Source: Escherichia phage PECP20. Taken from it: a stretch of 64,000 nt of DNA. The position numbers and the translations under genes are program-made. The stretch lies in the sequence record OQ873415.1; one strand, given 5' to 3'. The notes under the pieces were generated by a model. The model was not told where the DNA came from and did no database searches. It saw nothing but the letters and a program-made list of their open reading frames with translations. Shown here piece after piece: positions 9,234-23,768 of this stretch (its first letter is position 1; the number at the start of each line of letters is the position of its first letter).

Positions 9234-9431
9234 ATGTTTAAACTTCCATCGTTAATCAACGCTATTAAAGGCAATAAAAAGAAAACTGCTATCGCCGCAA
9301 TAGTTGTAGGTGGCATTATTTCATGGAACTTCGGGATTGCACCATTGTTAGTTGCCCATGGTATTATAGTTCCTTCTGTTCCATTGGATACTGTAGTTGA
9401 TTTGGCCTTTGCTATTATAGGGCTTGTTTAA
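9234..9431 (+). CDS. small hydrophobic membrane protein (65 aa)
   Basis: Only convincing plus-strand ORF; AAGGAG 7 nt before ATG; Gly/Ile-rich predicted helices. Confidence 0.5.
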   Translation: MFKLPSLINAIKGNKKKTAIAAIVVGGIISWNFGIAPLLVAHGIIVPSVPLDTVVDLAFAIIGLV

Positions 9432-10450
9432 ATCTTCGAATAACGAGATAATCTCATTTTAGCATGCAACCCACTTGAAATATTCTGTTTCATATATTCT
9501 AAAATTTCTTGTGGTGTTGCATTTTCTTTCATTACCATATCATTCACATCCTTTGAACTCCATGGAGCTCGGTCCCAGAACATAACACGTTCGCCTGCAT
9601 CTACTAATCGCTTCATACGAGCTATAGTATCCGGATGCCTAGGTTCATTATCCATCACCCATACCCGACGTTCTTTAAATGGTACCACATCTAAATCTAT
9701 TGAACCGCCTGTAATAGCGATTGCATTGGGTATGAATAAACTATCAATAGGGCCTTCCATTACCCAGACGTCTCCTTCCTTAACACGTTCAACACCATAA
9801 ATTTTTGTTGCAGACTCAAACGCTTTAATAGTTATATATTTCTGAGGAGCATCTTTGCGAAGTGCACGTCCTTGAAATGACTCAGCCTTCCCGTCTTTAT
9901 TAAAAATAGGAATCACTAAACGCGGTTCTGGAATCTCTTTCTTATACGTGCCTGGTTGAATCTTGTTGACCAATTTAGGCCATTCTAATGTGAACCATAA
10001 TCTGTTCCACGATTCTTTAGGAATACACCGAGACTTAACATATTTCACAATAGGATGCTCTTCAGGCAACTTGTCCAGACGAGAACAAGACGGCAAAGAA
10101 TTTATAGTCTTTTTCTCCGGTTCTGGTTTATGTTCAGGAACCTTTTCAATCTTTGGTTCCATTCTAGCTTTTTCTTTACGAACTTCCATTAGATATTCAC
10201 GATAAAGCTCTTCGTCATACTCTTTTAAGTATCCGGAAATCGTATTATGATATTGACAGTTATAGCAATGCACATTACCTGGAGTACCGCCATAATACCA
10301 TCCGCGGGCTTTCATTGCATCTGTCTGAGAGTCGCCACAAACTGGACAACGAAACGTTAATTTAAATGTGCTTGAATTATTGATTTGTCTAAAACGAGGT
10401 AGGTGAGAAAACGCACGATAAGCAAATTCATTATCTATCCATTCAGCCAT
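9428..10450 (-). CDS. 61: DNA primase (gp61)
   Basis: 340 aa; zinc ribbon CPVCGDS...CYNC and TOPRIM region near-identical to T4 gp61 as recalled. Confidence 0.95.
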   Translation of the reverse strand: MAEWIDNEFAYRAFSHLPRFRQINNSSTFKLTFRCPVCGDSQTDAMKARGWYYGGTPGNVHCYNCQYHNTISGYLKEYDEELYREYLMEVRKEKARMEPKIEKVPEHKPEPEKKTINSLPSCSRLDKLPEEHPIVKYVKSRCIPKESWNRLWFTLEWPKLVNKIQPGTYKKEIPEPRLVIPIFNKDGKAESFQGRALRKDAPQKYITIKAFESATKIYGVERVKEGDVWVMEGPIDSLFIPNAIAITGGSIDLDVVPFKERRVWVMDNEPRHPDTIARMKRLVDAGERVMFWDRAPWSSKDVNDMVMKENATPQEILEYMKQNISSGLHAKMRLSRYSKI

Positions 10451-10489
10451 AGTATTCTCCAGAGGCCTTAAATTAATAAGGCCATCATA

Positions 10490-10984
10490 TCACAACTTAT
10501 TGATATTTACTTTAATTCGCTTTCTTTTCTTGGAAGGAATTTGTTCTGGACCTTTATTTACGACTGCACCTGTAGTTGTTCCTGATGCAATAGCTTGAGG
10601 GCTGCCACCTGAATCACCGGCCACCATATCCTCAAATAAAGGGAGTTCTTTAAATATTTCTTTCTGCTGTTCTTCCGTAATGTTATAGCGTGAAGCTACA
10701 GCACTCCAGGCAGACATCATTGAGGCCATTCCATTAAGACCTGGAACAGTACTCATCATTCGCTTCATTGAACGAACTGAAGCGTGAAAAGGTGTATAAG
10801 CCGCTTTCTCTTCGGGAGTAGAAGGACGTTTAAGAACACTTCCACGTTCGTCGATTATTTTGGCTTCGTACGCTTTCCATTCGGTAAAAGGTTTTTGCAT
10901 TAGTCGAATAAACTTATATGCGTAAACAGAATCTATTGCAGTGTTAATAATACCCATAGGTACCTCCTGAGTATATTTAATCAA
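10490..10984 (-). CDS. hypothetical protein (164 aa)
   Basis: ORF in the 61-to-41 accessory block. Confidence 0.6.
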   Translation of the reverse strand: MIKYTQEVPMGIINTAIDSVYAYKFIRLMQKPFTEWKAYEAKIIDERGSVLKRPSTPEEKAAYTPFHASVRSMKRMMSTVPGLNGMASMMSAWSAVASRYNITEEQQKEIFKELPLFEDMVAGDSGGSPQAIASGTTTGAVVNKGPEQIPSKKRKRIKVNINKL

Positions 10985-11174
10985 TCACAAAGATCGCTTT
11001 ATCACCGTTCGCATCTGTGACTTCATATGTAGTGTCTTCATAGTGTGGAATATTCCAAATTACACCATCATTAGCTTTTACGCTAATATGGTATTGGTGT
11101 TTTGAAACAACTTCATAATCTTCAAAACTTGTAAAAACACTAATTTTAGAACCAGTGCAAATTGCAGTAGTCAT
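10977..11174 (-). CDS. hypothetical protein (65 aa)
   Basis: ORF with 8-nt overlap to downstream gene. Confidence 0.5.
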   Translation of the reverse strand: MTTAICTGSKISVFTSFEDYEVVSKHQYHISVKANDGVIWNIPHYEDTTYEVTDANGDKAIFVID

Positions 11175-11175
11175 T

Positions 11176-11835
11176 TTAACCTCGATTCATAAATGCATTA
11201 AATATTTGGTCATCAACAGAAATTTCTAATTCGGCTTCAATTGCTTCAGCCTTTTCTTCAGGTGGTAATTCGTATCCACACACTACAATTTTTTCATCGA
11301 TATCAAAATATACAGAAGCAATACGATTAATGTTACTTTCAGTTAAGTCTAAATCAACATCAACATCTTTTTGACCTACACTTAAAGGATAACTAATACG
11401 GGTTATTTTATTATCTTTAACAAAGAGTCCACCAACATACTCTGTACTACGTTTGAAGTTTACACGTTTCCGAATTGAAAGATATGATACATCTTTACCG
11501 TGAGCTCGGCTCATAGGACATAATGAATAGCTAGAATAAGAGATGTCAAATCCTACACCTTCAATATGAGCCAACGTGTCATGAGTAAACCAATTATAAT
11601 CATATGCCAAATCCATTAAATTATAATATGTGAAAGGCACTGGATTAACATCATATGTTGTACCTTTAAAATCAGCCCAGGCAACGATTTCGTTATCTTT
11701 AACAATTACAAAAATTACACCAATATGGTATCCGTTATTATTTTCATTCGGCGTTATATTATAACATTGTGCATTAGGAAATTTACCATATTTAAATGGT
11801 GCGTTTTTGTGCATGTAATAAATCATATTATTCAC
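11176..11835 (-). CDS. hypothetical protein (219 aa)
   Basis: ORF; no motif recognised. Confidence 0.6.
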   Translation of the reverse strand: MNNMIYYMHKNAPFKYGKFPNAQCYNITPNENNNGYHIGVIFVIVKDNEIVAWADFKGTTYDVNPVPFTYYNLMDLAYDYNWFTHDTLAHIEGVGFDISYSSYSLCPMSRAHGKDVSYLSIRKRVNFKRSTEYVGGLFVKDNKITRISYPLSVGQKDVDVDLDLTESNINRIASVYFDIDEKIVVCGYELPPEEKAEAIEAELEISVDDQIFNAFMNRG

Positions 11836-12121
11836 CTGTGATTTCGGTTACGATATCTTTGTTATCGAAATTAGGGTCACAATACAAAACATAGTTGTAC
11901 TGCATGATACCGCCAGACTTAAGTTGTTCAACAACTTTATTAACCATATTAGGACGGTCTCGTTTAGTGATGTTCATGATATCAGAGAAGATTTGTTGTT
12001 CAACATCTTCTTGATTTGCAGTCATTGACCACTCACAGAGGTCTTTATCATAACCTGCTGTAACTGGAGCTGGTGCACATGATACTGCGAGTAAGATTGC
12101 TGCCAATGATAACTTTTTCAT
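11828..12121 (-). CDS. putative lipoprotein (97 aa)
   Basis: Signal peptide with lipobox LAVSC (MKKLSLAAILLAVSC). Confidence 0.6.
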   Translation of the reverse strand: MKKLSLAAILLAVSCAPAPVTAGYDKDLCEWSMTANQEDVEQQIFSDIMNITKRDRPNMVNKVVEQLKSGGIMQYNYVLYCDPNFDNKDIVTEITGE

Positions 12122-12150
12122 TTTAACTCCTTAGTTGATTTGATAGGACT

Positions 12151-12180
12151 ACTATACTATAGACCATCTATAATGTAAAC
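12151..12180 (-). promoter_or_regulatory. early-type promoter (GTTTAC-N18-TATAGT) upstream of lipoprotein gene
   Basis: Plus-strand actata...gtaaac; contains gataggact half-palindrome. Confidence 0.4.
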
Positions 12181-12184
12181 AAAT

Positions 12185-12433
12185 TTATTCTTTTTCGCGA
12201 ATAATAATTACTTGTTGAGGCTGCTGAGCAGATTTCTTTTCGGCAACGATAGACCAAATTAAAGTTCCAATCCAACCAATCATCGTCCAGTTAAAGAGTA
12301 AAGATACAAAGAAGATTGCTGTTGTGCTTTTTGTGCCACGAATAAGTGCGATTACCCAAGGCAACATGTAAATGATGATTGAACCAATACCTGCGATTAA
12401 AACTGCCACTGAACTAGCTACGAATAATTCCAT
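12185..12433 (-). CDS. small integral membrane protein (82 aa)
   Basis: Two to three hydrophobic helices. Confidence 0.6.
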   Translation of the reverse strand: MELFVASSVAVLIAGIGSIIIYMLPWVIALIRGTKSTTAIFFVSLLFNWTMIGWIGTLIWSIVAEKKSAQQPQQVIIIREKE

Positions 12434-12494
12434 GTTAATTTCCTCTTGATTTGTTATGTTTATAATATCTCGTTTTAACTTTGGCGTAAACCAA

Positions 12495-12863
12495 TTAATT
12501 AAATTTGTTTAAACGTTCAATACACTGGACGTAGTTATTCGCGATTTGTTTCTGGGAAGGCTCTTTGCCAGTTGTTTCAACATAGCGAATGAATGCGATT
12601 TCAGTAGCCTGTAAGCAATGTTCTTTAACGCGTTGTTCTTTTGACAATGCTACAGTATCAGAGTCACGATAACGTTGAGCATGGGCATCAGCTTGAATCA
12701 TTCGATTACCTACAGTAACCGGGTCTTCCACTTCGACTTTAGGTTGGTTGTACTGTTTAACATTCGGGTTATAAATCAATTGGCCAACATTATTAGGGAT
12801 AAAGCCATGAGCACCACATCCAGTTAATCCGAATACCATTGCTAAAGCTATTAATTTTTTCAT
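12495..12863 (-). CDS. putative lipoprotein (122 aa)
   Basis: Signal peptide with lipobox LTGC (MKKLIALAMVFGLTGC). Confidence 0.6.
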   Translation of the reverse strand: MKKLIALAMVFGLTGCGAHGFIPNNVGQLIYNPNVKQYNQPKVEVEDPVTVGNRMIQADAHAQRYRDSDTVALSKEQRVKEHCLQATEIAFIRYVETTGKEPSQKQIANNYVQCIERLNKFN

Positions 12864-12923
12864 TTCAATTTCCTCTGTAGTTGATAGAAAGATAGTAACA
12901 CAGTATGTGGTGCTTGTAAACAG

Positions 12924-13175
12924 CTATTTTAAACTTTTGCGAAATTTGCGTTTTTCTTGACGAATCTGTCGTTTAGTCGGACGTACAGCAAATTTAACGA
13001 AGTCCACTTTGCCGTGTGGAAACTTTTCAGATGCTTCACAGTCCATCATTAGTTCCCATCCTTCTAGAATAAGAGCTTTCCATTGTGTAGTTGATGCAAA
13101 TTCGTATGTTGATGGTTTAAACACAGTTGAATACATATTATCCTCTGAAATCAGCTTCAAAAACTTTCTCGTCAT
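12924..13175 (-). CDS. hypothetical basic protein with C-terminal VRPTKRQ motif (83 aa)
   Basis: ORF; C-terminus resembles the small ORF at 40935..41105. Confidence 0.45.
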   Translation of the reverse strand: MTRKFLKLISEDNMYSTVFKPSTYEFASTTQWKALILEGWELMMDCEASEKFPHGKVDFVKFAVRPTKRQIRQEKRKFRKSLK

Positions 13176-13350
13176 TAATAAATGCTTTAACTAATGCATT
13201 GTTCACTTCAGCAAGTTGTACCGTAACCCACTCGATTTCTTCGCGATCACCTGATAATATGATATCTTTAGTGAACATCTCGCCGCTTTTAAACCAGCCA
13301 ATAAAAGTAACTTTAGTTAATTTGCTCATATTTCCTCGCAAAATGCCCAT
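13138..13350 (-). CDS. hypothetical protein (70 aa)
   Basis: ORF; partial overlaps with both neighbours. Confidence 0.45.
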   Translation of the reverse strand: MGILRGNMSKLTKVTFIGWFKSGEMFTKDIILSGDREEIEWVTVQLAEVNNALVKAFINDEKVFEADFRG

Positions 13351-13643
13351 TCAGCATGATAAACTGTAGCACCTTTAGTATCATTCATTTGAACTACATC
13401 TACCGGAGAAATTACTCGATAGAGACGTGGTTCACCTCCATAAGAGCGTGCTGCTCGTCCTGCGTAAATCTTTGCTAAACCGATATCTTCAGTAAAGAAT
13501 ACACGATTCAAGTTTTTCTTACGTCCGGTTTCAGACAGAACTCCTGTTTCTTCAGGAGGACAAAGCATGTTTTCGATTTTAGCTGAACTACTTGAACCGT
13601 GATAAAAAATCTTAAATTCTGCTTTACAATCGATGGTTTTCAT
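13326..13643 (-). CDS. hypothetical protein with HGS motif (105 aa)
   Basis: ORF preceded by promoter cassette; FYHGSSSS motif. Confidence 0.55.
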   Translation of the reverse strand: MKTIDCKAEFKIFYHGSSSSAKIENMLCPPEETGVLSETGRKKNLNRVFFTEDIGLAKIYAGRAARSYGGEPRLYRVISPVDVVQMNDTKGATVYHAEWAFCEEI

Positions 13644-13669
13644 TTTGTTCTCCAGTAGTTGATAGGTCT

Positions 13670-13698
13670 ATAATAACACAACTACTGGAGAAGTAAAC
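13670..13698 (-). promoter_or_regulatory. T4-type early promoter (GTTTAC-N17-TATTAT)
   Basis: Plus-strand ataata (13670-13675) and gtaaac (13693-13698); spacer carries 5' arm of an SD-sequestering inverted repeat. Confidence 0.45.
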
Positions 13699-14073
13699 TT
13701 AAAAACGTAATTTAGATATATCTGCGTTGATTTCGTTTTGGTTTGCGTCGTATGCAATTAAACGAACCGCTTTAGATGGGTCATTCAATGCATAGAAATG
13801 ATGGAACATTGCTCGAACGATATCACCATTTACGAGTTCTACCTGGATAGGAGAACCTTTTTCGAGTTGGAAATGTTCATAAGCTTTGATGGTTCGCAGA
13901 TAATCAAGTTTTTGATTTCCAGCTCCAACTATTTGTACGATACGTTTGCCCATGTTTTCCATACGAGATACAATAGTTTTAGGAGCAAGAATAACGTAGG
14001 TTGCCAGTGGAGAAACTACTTCAACAGTTGTGTTTTCGGTGATTGCAGTAAAAATTGCTTGAGACATATTCAT
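13699..14073 (-). CDS. hypothetical protein (124 aa)
   Basis: ORF immediately downstream of gene 41. Confidence 0.6.
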   Translation of the reverse strand: MNMSQAIFTAITENTTVEVVSPLATYVILAPKTIVSRMENMGKRIVQIVGAGNQKLDYLRTIKAYEHFQLEKGSPIQVELVNGDIVRAMFHHFYALNDPSKAVRLIAYDANQNEINADISKLRF

Positions 14074-14139
14074 AATGTTTTCCTCTTGGTTGGTGTAAGT
14101 TCATCATATCATGCCTAGAGGAAGATGTAAACCCCGAAA

Positions 14140-14155
14140 GGAGACCGAAGTCTCC
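14140..14155 (-). terminator. UUCG-tetraloop hairpin just after gene 41
   Basis: Minus RNA GGAGAC-UUCG-GUCUCC then UUUCGGGG; followed by GTTTAC promoter-like hexamer. Confidence 0.4.
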
Positions 14156-14161
14156 TTTTTA

Positions 14162-15604
14162 TTAAAATTTTAACTCATTGGCTAAGCTATCTAGGTCAGC
14201 ACGTGTTGCTTTGGCTTTACCTACGCGTTCCGTACGATTCACCTCTGCCTGACGCATCTGAGCACCTGCGTTTTCATTTACCGTGTTAGGTGTGTTCATG
14301 CCTTCTTGCTCAATCTCAACCCATTTCTGATTGCCTTTACGTACACCCATCAAGAACTTGTTCCACTTATTCTTATCACCGTATCGTGATTTGATTTGTT
14401 TGATAAGTTGTTGTTCAGCTTGTGCAAGTTCTTCGGTTTCAATTACAGCCAACATGAAATCTGCCGTTGCTGGTAAACCTGCTGATTCTGCGATATCACT
14501 CATGTTCATGTCTGAAGCATCCCATGCTGCACGTCCTACTTGAGCTGCAGTCCATAGAACTGTTTCAGATTCTACTGCTAATGCACGAAGTTCTTCTGCG
14601 ATAGCTTTAACTAATGTGTAGCTATTTTCAGTGTAAACTCTGATACGACAAGACCCACAAATACCTAAGTAATCGACTATGATTACAGACGGCACAAAGT
14701 TCTTCTTGAGTTTCAATTCATTAAGCAATGCACGGAATGTATTAGCATTAGCTCCACCAGTAGGATACTGTTTGACTACTAAACGTCCTAATGTTGATTT
14801 TGAACGCCATTTTTCCATCTTGGCTTTATATTCAGCATAAGATACATTACCATCATCGATATCATCGAGTGATACGTCAAGCATGTTTGCATCTATACGC
14901 TTAGCACAAACTTCTTCAGCCATTTCCATGGAAATATAAAGAACATTATGTCCTGTTTGAAGATAATCTGCAGCAAGTGAACAAAGGCCTAAAGATTTAC
15001 CAACGTTAACACCAGCCATTAAAACGTTCAGTGTACCTGTTTCTGCACCGCCTTTGGTGATTTTATTCAAAATGTTTAATTTGAACGGGACCTTACGTGC
15101 TTTATTTAGATAAGAAAGCCAGCGTGCTTCATAGTCTTCCATCCAGTCATGACCAACATAACTATCAAACGAAATTGAAAGTGCTTGACGCATAATATCA
15201 GGAATAGCTCCTACGTCAGGCATTTTCTTGTTACGTTGTTCTGGAGGTAGTTCAGCATTAGACTGAATCTCAATGATTTTGGATGTAGCATTATACATCG
15301 CTTTTTGCTGGACATATTTCTCAGTTTCTTTAACCAACCATTCGTGGTCTTCAGGAGTATCAGCCAATTTTTCAATTAGGTCCGAAGTTCCTTTATATTC
15401 GGCTTCAGTTAAAGAACTGTTATCTAAAGCCACCTTTAATGCATTGATAGATGGCATTGCATTATATTCGTTAACGTGGCTCTTTATAATTTTAAAGACA
15501 TTTTTTGCCGGTCCACGCTCAAAATACTCAGAATCCATATAAGGCCAGACCTTAGAAAAATAAGCCTGGTCATATACTAGATGAGACAAAATAATTTCTA
15601 CCAC
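14162..15604 (-). CDS. 41: replicative DNA helicase (gp41, DnaB-like)
   Basis: 480 aa; MVEIILSHLVYDQAYFSKV and Walker motifs match T4 gp41 as recalled. Confidence 0.95.
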   Translation of the reverse strand: MVEIILSHLVYDQAYFSKVWPYMDSEYFERGPAKNVFKIIKSHVNEYNAMPSINALKVALDNSSLTEAEYKGTSDLIEKLADTPEDHEWLVKETEKYVQQKAMYNATSKIIEIQSNAELPPEQRNKKMPDVGAIPDIMRQALSISFDSYVGHDWMEDYEARWLSYLNKARKVPFKLNILNKITKGGAETGTLNVLMAGVNVGKSLGLCSLAADYLQTGHNVLYISMEMAEEVCAKRIDANMLDVSLDDIDDGNVSYAEYKAKMEKWRSKSTLGRLVVKQYPTGGANANTFRALLNELKLKKNFVPSVIIVDYLGICGSCRIRVYTENSYTLVKAIAEELRALAVESETVLWTAAQVGRAAWDASDMNMSDIAESAGLPATADFMLAVIETEELAQAEQQLIKQIKSRYGDKNKWNKFLMGVRKGNQKWVEIEQEGMNTPNTVNENAGAQMRQAEVNRTERVGKAKATRADLDSLANELKF

Positions 15605-15613
15605 GATAACTCC

Positions 15614-15955
15614 TTAAAAGAATTTAAATTTTTTCTTGGTCCGTTCATTAAAAGCTTGTTGTACTTGCATTGTAACACATTTTTCAACATGTGGTGCAAG
15701 TTCTGCTTTTCTGTCCTGGTCAAGAACTGCAAAGTCCATTACGATTTTACCATCAACCCAGTCTAGTTTTGTAATATAGACTATATGATGAGAACCATCT
15801 TCAAGTGTAATCAGAATCTCTTGAATGACATTTTCCATTGCTGAACGGATAATTTTAAGAGATTCATTAAACACTCGTTCTTTGCGAATGTCTTCCCCTT
15901 CCGAAGAAGGGGATTCATCAACGATTTCTAGATTTAAATCATCGAGATTATTCAT
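15614..15955 (-). CDS. hypothetical protein in the gene 40 position
   Basis: In-frame ATG (MNNLDD) at 15955 overlaps uvsX stop by 8 nt; track start 16075 would sit inside uvsX. Confidence 0.5.
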   Translation of the reverse strand: MNNLDDLNLEIVDESPSSEGEDIRKERVFNESLKIIRSAMENVIQEILITLEDGSHHIVYITKLDWVDGKIVMDFAVLDQDRKAELAPHVEKCVTMQVQQAFNERTKKKFKFF

Positions 15956-17120
15956 CGAAATCTTCCATTTCGTCAAGGTCGTTTTCAATATCTGCTGCAG
16001 ACGGAGCATCAGAAGCTTTAACCGGAACTTTAGTTGTTGCTTTGCAATTAATAAGGTCGTTAACAGCGTCATCAACTTCTTTAATAGAAGAGATAGCGCC
16101 TAGTTTATATTTAGTTTCAATTGCATCTCGGAAAGGTTTGTGTTTAAACAACGGTCCCCAGAATTCTACACAATCAGTAGCTTTAGCACGCCACGATTTC
16201 TCTTCACGAATCATTTCACCTGTTTCTTCGTCAAGGAATTCACGAGCATACCAACCAGCTTTAGGCTTAACAACAAATCCAATTTCAGTTGCCATTTCTA
16301 ACAAGCCACTGAATGGATCGATACCGCCGTCAAAATTAACCGTGATTGGGAAAGTAGATTTCTCTTTAACTGTACGAGATTTTTCTGCTTTCAACGTGAA
16401 GTCATAACCGGTCAATTCTGTACCTTCTTTAACCTGACGTTTAGAGATAAAGAATACAGTGTTAGCAGAGTAAAGAATACCTGTACCACCACCCATAATC
16501 TCTTTAGGATATAGTCCGCCGATTTCCATTGCTGTATGGTTGATTGCAACACACGGAATATCTTTAATAGTCAGATAAGGAGTCACAATACGGAACAGAG
16601 ATTTAAGTGCCTTAGCACGAGACATATCACCTACGACTTTCTCGTTCAATGCATCTTCGGTTTCTTTCTTAGATGCAGTATTACCGATTGAATCGATAAA
16701 GATAATAACTTTATCACCGCGTTCAATAGCGTCAAGCTGATTAGTCATATCAACTTTAAGTTGTTCTACAGATTGAATCGGAGTATGAACTACACGGTCT
16801 AAATCAACACCCATTGAACGAAAATAAGATTCTGAAGCACCGAATTCCGAGTCATAAAACAAACAGATTGCATCTTTATATTTCTTCATATACGCTGCAA
16901 CCATAGTCAGCCCAAACAATGTTTTAAAGTGTTTAGAAGGAGCAGCAAAAATAGTTAAGCCTGATTGCAATCCTGCATTCAGAGCACCACCTAGTGCGAT
17001 ATTCAACATCGGAATACGAGTAGGGACTTCATCACGATTATTAAACAGCTTAGACTTAGTCAAGTCTGCAGTCATTTTAGAAGTAGAAGCTTTAATCAGA
17101 CGAGATTTTAAATCAGACAT
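15948..17120 (-). CDS. uvsX: UvsX recombinase (RecA/Rad51 family)
   Basis: 390 aa; near-colinear with T4 UvsX as recalled. Confidence 0.95.
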   Translation of the reverse strand: MSDLKSRLIKASTSKMTADLTKSKLFNNRDEVPTRIPMLNIALGGALNAGLQSGLTIFAAPSKHFKTLFGLTMVAAYMKKYKDAICLFYDSEFGASESYFRSMGVDLDRVVHTPIQSVEQLKVDMTNQLDAIERGDKVIIFIDSIGNTASKKETEDALNEKVVGDMSRAKALKSLFRIVTPYLTIKDIPCVAINHTAMEIGGLYPKEIMGGGTGILYSANTVFFISKRQVKEGTELTGYDFTLKAEKSRTVKEKSTFPITVNFDGGIDPFSGLLEMATEIGFVVKPKAGWYAREFLDEETGEMIREEKSWRAKATDCVEFWGPLFKHKPFRDAIETKYKLGAISSIKEVDDAVNDLINCKATTKVPVKASDAPSAADIENDLDEMEDFDE

Positions 17121-19426: not shown

Positions 19427-19666
19427 TTATTTGAATTTCTTGACAATGTTGATATAACGTAAAGCTTCAGAATCTATACTTCCAAGAACACTATGAAGGA
19501 ATGCATCAGTGTAGTATTCCAATTGAACAGGTTCTTTAATCACTTTAGCCGCTTTGGTTTCAAACAGGCCCATAAGGGCCTTTTTAAGAATTTGTTCGTT
19601 AGTGTTCAGTTTCATAGTCAAAATCTCTTCGTTAAGTTTATAATTAAAACTTTTTCTAGAAATCAT
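19427..19666 (-). CDS. hypothetical protein (79 aa)
   Basis: ORF; 4-nt overlap with upstream gene. Confidence 0.5.
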   Translation of the reverse strand: MISRKSFNYKLNEEILTMKLNTNEQILKKALMGLFETKAAKVIKEPVQLEYYTDAFLHSVLGSIDSEALRYINIVKKFK

Positions 19667-20823
19667 TCCGGGTACCTCAAAGCGTCATCAGAGTTAGTTA
19701 TATCAATAATAGATATGGAGTTTTCTGCTAACCCGTTTTTAGATAATTGACGTTTATAATACCTTTCACAATATGTACACGTTGACCCACAGATTTCATT
19801 AGCACAATCAAAATCTGGATGTCTGAACCACCTTTTTTCTAAAAAGCCATCTAACAAAGAGGTTTCAATATTTACTGTATGTGAAAACTCAGTCTCATTT
19901 TCAAGAGTGAAAATAGTCTCTAAAGGCTTCCACAGTTCTAACAAATTACCTTCAAACTTTTCAGAAGCGTATGCTTCAAGAACTTTCAAAATGTAGTCTG
20001 TGCTACCTGTACGTCCTGAAACTTTGAATTGAGTGATACCAATATCATTATAAAGTTTCAAATCTTGAGGACGAACAAAACGAGTTCTCAACCAGTTAAA
20101 TGGGTCTGTATCACGAGCTTTAATACAGTGCTGCATAGGATATCCATTTAAGGATTTAGCATCATCAGCGGTAACATCAGTACTATGGAAAATATAGCAA
20201 GAGTCACGATAACTACAATGTGTTGTATACCCTTTACCAGCATTAGAACAGAACTCATTTACAAGAACTTCAAATATTATATTGTTCTTATTGCAAAACT
20301 CTGCTGCACGCTTCAGGAAAGAAACTGAACGGTTCTTATGAATTCCGCAACAGACCTTTTTGATGTTATATTGGTCATGTAAGTATTTGATTTGAGTTAC
20401 CGCATCGACATGTAGAATTGTTGAAACTTCAATCTCAATATCTTTATTGACTTCACGAACAATTTCCATAACAACAGGGTTAGCGATAGTAATACGCCAT
20501 ACGCCTATTGACCAAAGATACTGAACATAATCCTGAATAGCTTTCTTCTTCCACTCAACTAGTTCTCTTTTTGAACCAGGATTTATCGTGTTGAGTGTAT
20601 AGTTAAAGCAAATACCTAATTCGTTACAACGTTTAACGTAGTCTTCTAACATCTTTTTGTCAACGTCAGGAAGCCTAAAATCAGGTCTGGCTGCTACAAA
20701 AGCCATTTCTCTTGTAGAGCCATATACTTCGTTTATCAAGCTATTAGGATAGGTTTTATTGAGCTCTACGATTTTATCAAGAAGAGCTAAATCAAAATTC
20801 GTTCCGATTTTAAAAGTATTCAT
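19663..20823 (-). CDS. hypothetical Cys-rich protein, possible Fe-S enzyme
   Basis: 386 aa; C-terminal C-x4-C-x3-C-x-Y-C cluster plus scattered Cys; family not assigned. Confidence 0.7.
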   Translation of the reverse strand: MNTFKIGTNFDLALLDKIVELNKTYPNSLINEVYGSTREMAFVAARPDFRLPDVDKKMLEDYVKRCNELGICFNYTLNTINPGSKRELVEWKKKAIQDYVQYLWSIGVWRITIANPVVMEIVREVNKDIEIEVSTILHVDAVTQIKYLHDQYNIKKVCCGIHKNRSVSFLKRAAEFCNKNNIIFEVLVNEFCSNAGKGYTTHCSYRDSCYIFHSTDVTADDAKSLNGYPMQHCIKARDTDPFNWLRTRFVRPQDLKLYNDIGITQFKVSGRTGSTDYILKVLEAYASEKFEGNLLELWKPLETIFTLENETEFSHTVNIETSLLDGFLEKRWFRHPDFDCANEICGSTCTYCERYYKRQLSKNGLAENSISIIDITNSDDALRYPE

Positions 20824-20879
20824 TTTTTTGCATCTCGCGTTAATTGATGCGATGGTTTTTGCAGGTCTTACTTAAATTA

Positions 20880-21281
20880 TTATAGATTTGGTTTATATGA
20901 TTTAAATGTTTCGAATTCGCCTTTATTCATAAGAGCTTTGAATTCGTCAGGACGCATAGCTTTGTCGTCGATAATCCAATCATATACTGGTTTATGTGTT
21001 AGCAAATTATGGTACTTCAAACCAATGTTTTCCAAGTTCTGAATCAGACTTGGGAGAATGTCAATTGCTATACGACCAGGACCTACCGACTTCATACCAC
21101 GGGCAGTGTAAAGCGTTATGGTATGCCCTGCATCATACAGGGCATTAATGGCAGACACCATTTCGACGTCTGGTTTGAAGTTCACGTAATCACGATTGTT
21201 ATTCCACTCTGTTATACAATCATCGACATCAAAACAAAGATTAAGCATGTTTTCTACACGGTGCATTAGATTCGTTCCCAT
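20880..21281 (-). CDS. HAD-superfamily phosphatase (sugar-phosphate phosphatase-like)
   Basis: 133 aa; N-terminal FDVDDCIT (DxD nucleophile motif). Confidence 0.65.
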   Translation of the reverse strand: MGTNLMHRVENMLNLCFDVDDCITEWNNNRDYVNFKPDVEMVSAINALYDAGHTITLYTARGMKSVGPGRIAIDILPSLIQNLENIGLKYHNLLTHKPVYDWIIDDKAMRPDEFKALMNKGEFETFKSYKPNL

Positions 21282-22951
21282 TGATGAGTGATATCGCCGC
21301 CGATTGGACGATAGGAAACACCAGTTTCTTTATCAGTTAGTACCCATTTACCAGGATTTTTTGTAATCAGAGTAGCCGTTACAGGTTCTGCTACGTCATA
21401 ACTAATAGAGCCGTCTTGAAGTACACGGCCCATGTTACGTAATTGCTTAGTCAGAAGTTCCATACCTTTATAATATGCGGCAACCGCTTTAAGTGGATTA
21501 TTCTTGAAATAACCACCTAATGCAATCCAGATAATTGCTACTGCCAAATGATGATACTCGTTAAACGAACTCATCTTTCCATATTTGTAAACTAATGGAT
21601 TGATGTTAATAGTCAAATTACAAGTTGTTTCATCAATAGTAAACTGACCCCAGGTCGGATTAGCATTGAATTCATCATAACCTGAAACAGCATAAAGCAC
21701 TTTAGCTTCATCATACAATTTTGGCCCGTAAATCTTGGTTTCACCAAAATATCCACGAGGGTCGATAAACTTGACTTCGCCGTTATCGGTAATCATAGTA
21801 TTACTGAAGTTCGGGTCACCATGAATAACAGAGTACTGTCCCTGAGAACGGTTATGATAACGAATAAGATGTTCTAAAGCTTGTTTCAACATTGGCTTCA
21901 GACGTCCAATCTTAGTGTAGTTCACATGTGTGATTTTACCAAATGAATCAATCAATGGCTGAATGCTTTCACAACGATCAATAACTTTCGTATAGAACTC
22001 TTTAGTGAAATCACGGCGAACAGTTTCAGGACTTACAAAATAAGTGTCCGTGCTGAATTTCAGTGCATCTAAAATTGCATCAACAATTTGTGGACGAGCA
22101 AGACTTGATTTGGATTTAATATATTCAAATGCCGGCTTACCTTTAATACGTTCCATTTCAAAATTATTTTCATTTACCGAAACTAACTGAGGAACTGAAT
22201 CTGATTTCACTTTCAAATACCATGAAATCTCATCTTTTTGAAGAGCTCGACCTTGTTCGGTTAACGCGAATTTAGTTACAGTTTCTTCGCCAATTTCAAC
22301 TGCATTAAAACTACGATTCAGTTCACGAACTTCATGAGCCTTTTCAAGTTTAGGCATATCACCTAAATCAATTAGATTCATAAGCTCTGATTTATTGAAT
22401 GCACTGCCGTAAAGGAATTCTACGAAATCACGACCTTTGCAGTATTCGTGAATTTCCTCATCAGTAGAACCCATGTAGAATTCCCAGTCTTTGAACTGAT
22501 AAATTCCTACAACATTACCACCTGTTGAACCTACGTTAGTGATATTTTCACCATCGAAATTATATCGACATTCATCACCCTTAACATAGATTGCGTTAAC
22601 ATTCCAAGACCATGAACCAAAGTCAGGAATAATATCACACCAGTTAACAATTACGTTATGGCCATCTAAATCTTTGTATAATTTAGCAAGAGCATAAGCA
22701 GAACCATACGCTTCATCAACTGTACGAATAGTCACATTGAACCCTTCTTGCTCGCAATAAGCTCGAACAGTTTCAGCAAATTTTGAATGAACTACTACAA
22801 TAATTTCATCTGCGCCAAGGTCAGAATAAATTGTATACAAATTGCTCAGAATAGTGTCTTGTTTATAGTTAACAAGCACCTTAGGAATATGGTGAGTAAT
22901 TGGATATAAACGAGTTGCTAATCCAGCACCAAGAATAACAGCTTTTTTCAT
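21266..22951 (-). CDS. bifunctional sugar-1-phosphate nucleotidyltransferase / APH-type sugar kinase
   Basis: 561 aa; N-terminal MKKAVILGAGLATRLYP (RmlA-like); C-terminal HGDPNFSN...IDPRG (aminoglycoside/choline-kinase-like). Confidence 0.8.
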   Translation of the reverse strand: MKKAVILGAGLATRLYPITHHIPKVLVNYKQDTILSNLYTIYSDLGADEIIVVVHSKFAETVRAYCEQEGFNVTIRTVDEAYGSAYALAKLYKDLDGHNVIVNWCDIIPDFGSWSWNVNAIYVKGDECRYNFDGENITNVGSTGGNVVGIYQFKDWEFYMGSTDEEIHEYCKGRDFVEFLYGSAFNKSELMNLIDLGDMPKLEKAHEVRELNRSFNAVEIGEETVTKFALTEQGRALQKDEISWYLKVKSDSVPQLVSVNENNFEMERIKGKPAFEYIKSKSSLARPQIVDAILDALKFSTDTYFVSPETVRRDFTKEFYTKVIDRCESIQPLIDSFGKITHVNYTKIGRLKPMLKQALEHLIRYHNRSQGQYSVIHGDPNFSNTMITDNGEVKFIDPRGYFGETKIYGPKLYDEAKVLYAVSGYDEFNANPTWGQFTIDETTCNLTININPLVYKYGKMSSFNEYHHLAVAIIWIALGGYFKNNPLKAVAAYYKGMELLTKQLRNMGRVLQDGSISYDVAEPVTATLITKNPGKWVLTDKETGVSYRPIGGDITHQWERI

Positions 22952-22993
22952 GTTGAAGTCCTCATTGGTAAGTAGGTGTATTGTACACTATTC

Positions 22994-23136
22994 TAGTTAA
23001 AGCATTCATACTTTGCCTGTAGACCAATCATAATCCATCCAATTACAAGTGTTGGAATCATTACTGGAGCCGTTAAGCCCCAGTAGATAGTCATGGCAAG
23101 CATCAATAGTAAAAGTCCTATTGTTATTGCTTTCAT
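22994..23136 (-). CDS. small hydrophobic peptide (47 aa)
   Basis: ATGA overlap with stop of upstream SIS gene; hydrophobic; below ORF-track size cutoff. Confidence 0.35.
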
Positions 23137-23768
23137 TGTTCGCCTCGTAACATGGCACCTAGTGCACCACCAGGGTGGAACTTAAGGAAGTCATTAGAGG
23201 TAAATCCACGTTCAGACGAAAGGTTGATAGCAAACGTATCGATAAGCGCTAACAACAATGTAGTGGACATGGTCGGAGCCAGAGAATTCTCATCAACCTC
23301 TACCGCGATGCCTGTACAGAACGTATAATCAAAAAGAGCTTCGTATTCTTGCGGAATGTCAGGGTTACAATGTAACAGAATCTGTTTAACCTGAGGACGA
23401 ATCATACGAAGATGTTTAGCAACACCTATCATTTCTTCAGTCTTACCAGAACGACTGATGTGAACTAATACATCATTAGGTGCAATAAATCCTGCGTCGC
23501 CATGAGAATAATGCCCGGTGTTCAAATACATGCTAGGAATACCTAGTGAAGCAAAAGTCTCGGAAGCTTTAGTTGCGATATTAGCGTTCTTACCAACACC
23601 TGTAATAATTACTCGGCTTTCATAATTACTCAGTCCAGGGCGACGAAGAGTTTCAAGAATAGCATTATATCGGGCAGAGTTTTGACTAATTACTTTAGCC
23701 ATAGTGGCAAGAGATGAAGCTTGTTTTACGATTGCGTCAATAGCGATAGTGATTGGTGTAGTTTTCAT
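23133..23768 (-). CDS. SIS-domain sugar-phosphate isomerase (arabinose-5-phosphate isomerase-like, no CBS domains)
   Basis: 211 aa; ITGVGKNANIATK...HGDAG...ISRSGKT...HPGGALG closely resembles KdsD/GutQ SIS domain. Confidence 0.8.
   Translation of the reverse strand: MKTTPITIAIDAIVKQASSLATMAKVISQNSARYNAILETLRRPGLSNYESRVIITGVGKNANIATKASETFASLGIPSMYLNTGHYSHGDAGFIAPNDVLVHISRSGKTEEMIGVAKHLRMIRPQVKQILLHCNPDIPQEYEALFDYTFCTGIAVEVDENSLAPTMSTTLLLALIDTFAINLSSERGFTSNDFLKFHPGGALGAMLRGEQ

Follow-up and report, generated by a model that had tools for sequence, protein, structure and literature searches.

The closest described relatives of the locus examined here are exclusion and counter-defence genes of phages T4 and RB69. 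Binding and inhibition of the gp5 lysozyme domain have been demonstrated for T4 Spackle (Sp) (PMC7650644, PMC7677548), a protein that displays a LASC motif yet is soluble in the periplasm, N-terminal (Edman) sequencing having established that its first 22 residues are removed and that the protein starts at residue 23 (PMC7650644). Shi et al. likewise describe mature T4 Sp as a disulfide-bonded protein of 75 residues (PMC7677548). T4 Imm is reported to co-purify with the helical-bundle domain of gp29, the tape measure protein, to exclude T4 on its own when plasmid-borne, and to exclude more weakly when it carries the R33A or the W50A substitution (bioRxiv 10.64898/2026.03.06.709160, 2026 preprint). 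The anti-DarT factor AdfA was discovered in RB69, where the Arg164 allele neither binds nor neutralises E. coli DarT1 and the His allele does, a single Arg-to-His change restoring neutralisation (PMC11257639). Homologues of these genes lie at positions 10490–14073 of a stretch of 64,000 nucleotides from Escherichia phage PECP20 (OQ873415.1; the window, hereafter), where ten open reading frames (ORFs), all on the minus strand, fill the interval between genes 61 and 41.

This interval is, with high confidence, the RB69-like (Mosigvirus) version of an early cluster already known from T-even phages, where it separates genes 41 and 61. Nucleotide comparison with GenBank places the window among the RB69-like (Mosigvirus) T-even phages, and positions 9400–15700 share 99.7% identity with Escherichia phage CAU_ECP01. 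The same 6.3 kb is present at 95–99.7% identity, with unchanged gene order, in about 150 GenBank phage genomes, the count being of records whose alignment takes in 80% or more of that length at an identity of at least 95%; these are RB69-like T-even phages filed as Mosigvirus or, for some, as Tequatrovirus. Since both the sequence and the gene order are kept in about 150 genomes, the ten ORFs do not arise by chance. The minus strand is used throughout the locus, which comprises uvsX (15948–17120), 40, 41 (14162–15604), the ten small ORFs, 61 (9428–10450) and 56. All ten proteins find a full-length family match in PHROGs (E 1e-29 to 1e-131), and the Pfam gathering scores are passed by Dmd, DUF7279 (61.4), DUF5481 (Imm.1), Imm_superinfect, T4_Spackle and AdfA, while 61.1 is recognised by PHROGs and not by Pfam. 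NCBIfam returned for the ten proteins a single match far below its cutoff (ORF124, 17 bits against 329, E 0.003) and none for the other nine. Spackle, imm, dmd, Imm.1, gp61.1, gp61.2 and gp61.4 are already named in the annotations of the roughly 150 relatives. Thus the spackle, imm, imm.1, dmd and adfA cluster is already known and annotated in near-identical genomes, and its analysis brings nothing new on how T-even phages exclude each other; the leads it leaves are the pairing of Imm.1 with Imm, the invariant Ser-Cys of Sp and a miniature ADP-ribosyltransferase candidate, ORF105, in a counter-defence neighbourhood.

Read on the minus strand from gene 41 to gene 61, the gene order is ORF124, ORF105, dmd, 61.4, imm.1, imm, sp, adfA (61.2), ORF65 and a long 61.1. 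The corresponding T4 slot reads 41-dmd-61.4-sp-61.2-61.1-61, with five of the ten genes present, and that of Dhakavirus QL01 reads 41-ORF105-dmd-x-61.4-sp-x-x-61.1-61. The backbone of the 41–61 interval is thus common to the T-even phages and only its fillings vary. An initial annotation made from the sequence had called the interval an accessory island, which holds in the sense of a variable early-gene slot shared by T-even phages and fails in the sense of a novel insertion, T4 carrying five of these genes at the same place. Gene-for-gene conservation, which that annotation associated with housekeeping genes, is found in the roughly 150 genomes, although the functions assigned are exclusion and counter-defence and not housekeeping. 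Unlike T4, the window has ORF124 and ORF105 separating 41 from dmd, the imm.1-imm pair inserted between 61.4 and sp, an ORF65, and a 61.1 with an N-terminal extension. Identity to the T4 counterparts is 66% for Sp, 65% for Imm, 65% for gp61.2 (AdfA), 57% for Dmd, 57% for gp61.4 and 32% for Imm.1, while the 75% identity of gp61.1 is confined to its last 40 residues.

In T4 the imm.1-imm pair is located between genes 43 and 42. Matches to imm number exactly one per phage record (1040 places in 1040 records), and because every record holds a single copy the pair has been relocated rather than duplicated. The 43–42 slot of the window (19427–23768, minus strand) contains, in place of imm.1-imm, genes for a SIS-domain protein, a nucleotidyltransferase of 561 residues and a peptidase-U32-like protein, which would correspond to the RB69 arabinosyl-hydroxymethylcytosine modification cluster. 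The slot also holds an ORF for a hydrophobic membrane protein of 47 residues (22993–23136, minus strand; MKAITIGLLLLML...YECFN), homologous to an unannotated ORF of 49 residues found directly downstream of imm in T4 (locus L003, about 11221–11373) and in Dhakavirus. The 47-residue ORF is a remnant of the old imm neighbourhood, left behind in the 43–42 region when imm.1-imm moved.

The cluster consists of small, non-essential host-interaction genes transcribed together with the replication genes, several of them from an early-type promoter of their own. Gene identity and synteny are observed directly; for Sp, Imm, Dmd and AdfA the mechanism would carry over from published T4 and RB69 work, and for Imm.1 and ORF105 we infer a role. 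Three of the genes would act at the envelope and the remaining ones in the cytoplasm. The envelope-acting genes are:

11828–12121, minus strand: sp (61.3), Spackle, identified by PF25676, identity to T4 Sp, and PDB entries 6x6o and 7cn6
12185–12433, minus strand: imm, inner-membrane superinfection immunity protein, identified by PF14373, identity to T4 Imm, and R32/W49
12495–12863, minus strand: imm.1 (DUF5481), predicted lipoprotein, with PF17578, lipobox LTG-C16, Gly at +2, Cys83 and Cys114

The small ORFs between 61 and 41, the lipobox motifs and the membrane protein of 82 residues noted in the initial annotation are all real, as judged from the ORFs themselves, a PROSITE PS51257-type lipobox rule and two hydrophobic stretches in the membrane protein.

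Sp matches PF25676 over residues 1–96 of 96 (E 1.1e-42, 145 bits against a cutoff of 27) and PDB 6x6o with E 1.4e-39. The N-terminus of the 97-residue protein reads MKKLSLAAILLAVSC, and its lipobox-like Cys is Cys15. The A-V-S-C15 motif passes the permissive PS51257-type rule, with Ala, a weak lipobox residue, at position -3. The predicted signal peptide comprises residues 1–22, ending in VTA/GYDK (the slash marking cleavage) and aligning with AMA/GYDK of T4. Cys29, Cys81 and the C-terminal Gly-Glu of Spackle are kept in the window protein. Ser14, Cys15, Pro19 and Ala22 are invariant across 18 homologues of Sp, of which the most distant are 46% identical, and Cys29 and Cys81 are also invariant in the Sp alignment. 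T4 Sp displays the same length of 97 residues and the same plan of MKK, hydrophobic core, Ser-Cys, Pro19, Ala22/Gly23, Cys29 and Cys81, and is likewise encoded in the 41–61 slot directly upstream of 61.2. The two differ in the motif, AVSC in the window and LASC, the better lipobox of the two, in T4, and in the upstream neighbour, which is imm in the window and 61.4 in T4. Because the T4 protein has been shown to be cleaved and its cleavage context is kept in the window protein, Sp is taken, on the published T4 evidence, as a probable substrate of signal peptidase I and not as a lipoprotein. It would be exported through Sec, cleaved after Ala22 and folded around a Cys29-Cys81 disulfide, and by analogy with T4 would bind the gp5 lysozyme domain on incoming tail spikes, thus blocking the digestion of peptidoglycan.

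Imm matches PF14373 with E 1.5e-15 (57.2 bits against a cutoff of 27.9). The 82-residue protein contains two hydrophobic stretches, residues 1–34 and 40–59, and its R32 and W49, which correspond to R33 and W50 of T4, are invariant in the Imm alignment. T4 Imm, with 83 residues, has the same hydrophobic layout and the same exclusion residues; the difference lies in location, imm being placed between imm.1 and sp in the 41–61 slot of the window and between 43 and 42 in T4. If the T4 mechanism applies, Imm would insert in the inner membrane and there bind the superinfecting phage's tape measure protein, so that no DNA channel would form.

Imm.1 passes PF17578 (DUF5481) with 37.4 bits against a cutoff of 27 (E 3.7e-9) and aligns with T4 Imm.1 in BLASTP with E 1.4e-17 and 32% identity. 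The N-terminus of this 122-residue protein reads MKKLIALAMVFGLTGC, in which L-T-G-C16 satisfies the PS51257-type rule. The lipobox Cys is present in ten of eleven divergent Imm.1 members, C83 and C114 are invariant, and residue +2 is never Asp among the members examined. In E. coli, the Lol sorting rule directs lipoproteins with a residue other than Asp at +2 to the outer membrane. Imm.1 is likely a small lipoprotein, with a location in the outer membrane predicted because residue +2 is not Asp. T4 Imm.1 (ORF 42.2) shares the lipobox signal peptide, the YNPNVK motif, the two conserved Cys residues in a helical C-terminal part and the position immediately upstream of imm; the two proteins are related at the 32% identity given above, and the window protein lacks a VVNQSDVGK segment that follows the lipobox.

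The association of imm.1 with imm is strict. The gap between the two genes is 61 nucleotides in the window, and imm.1 adjoins imm in 25 of 25 T4-like loci examined, belonging to seven genera; imm.1 lies upstream of imm in Tequatrovirus, Mosigvirus, Gelderlandvirus, Moonvirus (Merlin), Jiaodavirus and Muldoonvirus, and downstream in Dhakavirus. Related loci were collected by a pattern scan for Imm.1, which gave 7 loci, and by a scan for Imm, which gave 80 loci and was the one used. When every ORF of the loci collected was searched with an iterated profile, the search recovered exactly the imm neighbours of T4-like phages and no Imm.1 homologue beside the imm-like genes of phages that are not T4-like. 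Homologues numbered three in a word-indexed search and nine in an exhaustive profile search of 1.84 billion representatives, so the Imm.1 family is small and confined to T4-like phages. Thus imm.1 travels with imm over seven T4-like genera and moved jointly with it in Mosigvirus, and the mechanism described for Imm and the tape measure protein makes the question of a partner timely.

Expression of the interval can be read from a hairpin and five promoter-like sites, all on the minus strand:

14140–14155, minus strand: hairpin GGAGAC-UUCG-GUCUCC in the 41-ORF124 gap, immediately downstream of the gene 41 stop codon
14103–14132, minus strand: early-type promoter-like site GTTTACA-N17-TATGAT, with TG, upstream of ORF124
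13670–13698, minus strand: early-type promoter-like site GTTTACT-N16-TATTAT, upstream of ORF105
12892–12921, minus strand: early-type promoter-like site GTTTACA-N17-TACTAT, with TG, upstream of imm.1
12462–12491, minus strand: early-type promoter-like site GTTTACG-N17-TATTAT, upstream of imm
12151–12180, minus strand: early-type promoter-like site GTTTACA-N17-TATAGT, upstream of sp

The interval contains five intergenic gaps of at least 55 nucleotides, those upstream of ORF124, ORF105, imm.1, imm and sp, and each harbours a GTTTAC-N16-17-TAnnnT element, presumably the form of T4 early promoters. Over the whole window, the coding strand bears 24 copies of GTTTAC-N16-19-TAnnnT and the other strand 3, and the five elements of the interval are all located in those gaps. 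Gap placement and this strand-biased signature form the entire basis of the promoter reading. Early-type promoters would fit genes that are needed within minutes of infection. The hairpin, which stands ahead of the ORF124 promoter-like site, is followed by 3 T only and was not called by the terminator scan; it may serve to stabilise RNA or act as a weak terminator.

As a conserved neighbour of imm, Imm.1 is proposed to assist or extend exclusion. We therefore put forward, tentatively, that Imm.1 might contribute to envelope-level exclusion together with Imm, as a so far unrecognised third component. The accompanying picture, equally tentative, is that of a disulfide-bonded outer-membrane lipoprotein which in Mosigvirus is clustered with Imm and Sp in a three-gene early module. 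The role in superinfection exclusion suggested by the initial annotation accordingly applies to two of the three envelope proteins, Spackle and Imm, which are known exclusion genes in T4, while for Imm.1 it is only inferred. Several points weigh against this proposal and against the mechanisms around it. The AlphaFold2 (AF2) model of Imm.1 is of low confidence (predicted local distance difference test score, pLDDT, 62), only three C-terminal helices being confident, and a fold search with this model gave no informative match. Imm.1 is dispensable for the core activity of Imm, since T4 Imm alone excludes T4 from a plasmid. Kanamaru et al. found that overexpressed Sp had no effect on T4 titre and suggested that it serves mainly to neutralise free gp5 (PMC7650644). 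Sigma-70-like sites in the region amount to 25 against 22.4 in shuffled sequence, which is no excess. Finally, every mechanism is transferred from orthologues in T4 or RB69 at 57–66% identity. The Imm.1 profile matched nothing significant among PDB sequences, no literature on Imm.1 function was found, and the Imm preprint (10.64898/2026.03.06.709160) does not mention imm.1.

A separate question is whether Sp is made, at least partly, as a lipoprotein, its [LVA][AVS]S-C15 motif being used by Lgt/LspA. The anchored protein would then sit in the outer membrane (Ala at +2), where the tail spikes emerge, and the soluble protein that begins at residue 23 would be another product of processing or else result from overexpression. 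We consider this unlikely, and a weaker reading than the one offered for Imm.1. Ser14 and Cys15 are invariant in the 18 homologues while the surrounding hydrophobic core varies, and the Ser14 codon is TCT in T4 and TCA in the window amid many nearby synonymous changes, so that conservation of this residue operates at the level of the protein. However, the signal peptidase I site is equally invariant at Pro19 and Ala22, and the signal peptide as a whole is not unusually conserved, 8 of its 22 positions being invariant compared with 23 of the 75 in the mature protein. The motif satisfies the PS51257-type rule, although Ala at -3 in the window occupies a weak lipobox position. In a profile comparison (hhalign), the signal peptide of Sp and the lipoprotein signal peptide of Imm.1 align with each other, including at the Cys. 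As for the T4 protein, both structural papers (PMC7650644, PMC7677548) leave the Ser-Cys motif undiscussed and lack the words lipoprotein and lipid, and a lipidated subpopulation would be compatible with soluble-fraction data from an overexpressing strain; nevertheless, the Sp released from the periplasm starts at residue 23, is soluble and is abundant (PMC7650644), and a second laboratory also describes the mature form of 75 residues (PMC7677548). Of the two lipoproteins proposed in the initial annotation, Imm.1 (LTGC) is thus a likely one, whereas Spackle has a T4 orthologue that is cleaved by signal peptidase I (PMC7650644). Sp and Imm.1 were also considered as distant homologues and this was rejected, the hhalign alignment being limited to signal peptides of 19 residues.

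The main alternative for Imm.1 itself is that it masks a receptor, as an outer-membrane lipoprotein comparable to T5 Llp or Cor that would act on adsorption or on an outer-membrane receptor without Imm. These exclusion lipoproteins, small, phage-encoded and exported to the envelope, provide the nearest functional analogy for Imm.1, with which they share no sequence or family link in Pfam or PHROGs. The lipobox with a residue other than Asp at +2 throughout the Imm.1 members agrees with such a function, one member, the metagenomic homologue P0002, breaking the pattern by lacking the lipobox Cys. Similarly, Imm.1 evolves much faster than the proteins encoded beside it, T4 and the window sharing 32% identity in Imm.1 and about 65% in Imm and Sp, as would fit an arms-race target. 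In contrast, the family matches of Imm.1 are limited to DUF5481 in Pfam and one PHROGs family of unknown function, and imm.1 is tied to imm and not to a receptor-binding protein gene. This strict linkage extends over seven genera with different hosts and points to Imm rather than to one receptor. Receptor masking is on balance improbable, and Imm.1 as a partner of Imm is preferred.

Two further observations concern Imm.1. P0002, which is encoded on a contig of 1550 nucleotides, reads LAGF in place of LAGC, followed by an AHA/S site, and from its sequence would be a soluble periplasmic form, unless a sequencing error is responsible. In RefSeq, the product name iduronate sulfatase is given to Imm.1 of T4 (NC_000866, L003 11637–12014) and of phage HX01 (NC_018855), which looks like an annotation error for a DUF5481 lipoprotein of 125 residues.

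A recently acquired foreign mobile island is rejected as very improbable. The G+C content does fall slightly, to 0.32–0.33 around positions 11000–12000 against 0.37–0.40 in the flanks, and the gene content of the slot differs between genera; however, the dmd-61.4-sp-61.1 backbone is also that of T4 and Dhakavirus, the roughly 150 genomes all have the one fixed arrangement, strand and promoter style are those of the flanking genes, and the Pfam and PHROGs matches of the ten proteins include no integrase, transposase or homing endonuclease family. The spanin component also suggested by the initial annotation, in which the lipobox proteins would be lysis components and an outer-membrane spanin would pair with the 82-residue inner-membrane protein, agrees with the bare pattern of small lipoprotein and membrane-protein genes placed side by side and is otherwise contradicted, since the proteins are Spackle, Imm and DUF5481 with no spanin family among the Pfam and PHROGs matches of the ten, Imm is mostly hydrophobic and devoid of a periplasmic coiled-coil domain, the envelope genes are preceded by early-type promoters and lie inside the block of replication genes and not, as Rz/Rz1 spanins with their outer-membrane lipoprotein and inner-membrane coiled-coil partner do, in a late lysis cassette, and non-lysis roles of T4 Sp and Imm are experimentally defined (PMC7650644; 10.64898/2026.03.06.709160).

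The remaining seven genes of the interval are:

13699–14073, minus strand: ORF124 (RB69ORF041c homologue), phrog_10668 over its full length (E 3e-86), absent from the T4 slot
13326–13643, minus strand: ORF105 (RB69ORF040c homologue), minimal protein of ADP-ribosyltransferase fold, its stop overlapping the dmd start by 4 nucleotides
13138–13329, minus strand: dmd (61.5), discriminator of mRNA degradation, antitoxin-like, PF17587, 63 residues from the start annotated in relatives
12924–13136, minus strand: 61.4 homologue (DUF7279), PF23945 (E 4.7e-20), 57% identical to T4 gp61.4
11176–11826, minus strand: adfA (61.2), anti-DarT factor A, PF23813, with the RB69-type Arg at RB69 position 164
10977–11174, minus strand: ORF65, phrog_3249 over its full length (E 1e-33), no Pfam match, absent from the T4 slot
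10490–10957, minus strand: long 61.1 homologue of 155 residues, phrog_2086 (E 1e-73) and phrog_1823, its C-terminal 40 or so residues resembling T4 gp61.1 (54 residues)

Dmd, encoded upstream of 61.4 and named dmd in relatives, matches PF17587 with E 1.7e-21 (76.7 bits against a cutoff of 27) and, by analogy with T4, would neutralise toxins of the RnlA/LsoA type. AdfA matches PF23813 over its full length (E 7.6e-119, 395 bits) and reads NINRIAS where T4 reads IINHIAS; its expected targets, from the published work, would be DarT toxins. The AdfA proteins of RB69 and T4 and T4 Dmd are full-length matches to the window proteins and occupy the same cluster positions.

ORF105 displays a confident ADP-ribosyltransferase fold with a conserved His and a conserved Tyr, its closest relatives in fold being KptA/Tpt1, Arr and AcrF11. 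Its score against Pfam Arr-ms (PF12120) is below the gathering score (13.9 bits against a cutoff of 25, E 0.06), and a precomputed PF12120 match is found in only one distant homologue (P0128). The gene occurs in 609 phage records from many host genera, is very conserved and is missing from T4. Arr, Tpt1/KptA and AcrF11 are small ADP-ribosyltransferases of the H-Y-E type, from which ORF105 differs by its size of only 105 residues; it is probably a small NAD-using ADP-ribosyltransferase. The literature searched contained no functional study of ORF105 and none on an Arr-like enzyme in T-even phages.

For ORF124, no significant sequence match was obtained in Pfam, NCBIfam or PDB, and a weak match to phosphoheptose isomerase (E 0.079) was treated as chance and the relationship rejected. 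The long 61.1 gave no significant match to PDB sequences. Outside the interval, between 56 and 61 and on the opposite strand, a hydrophobic ORF of 65 residues (9234–9431, plus strand) overlaps the end of 61 by 4 nucleotides and is annotated as a hypothetical protein in relatives that include Dhakavirus QL01.

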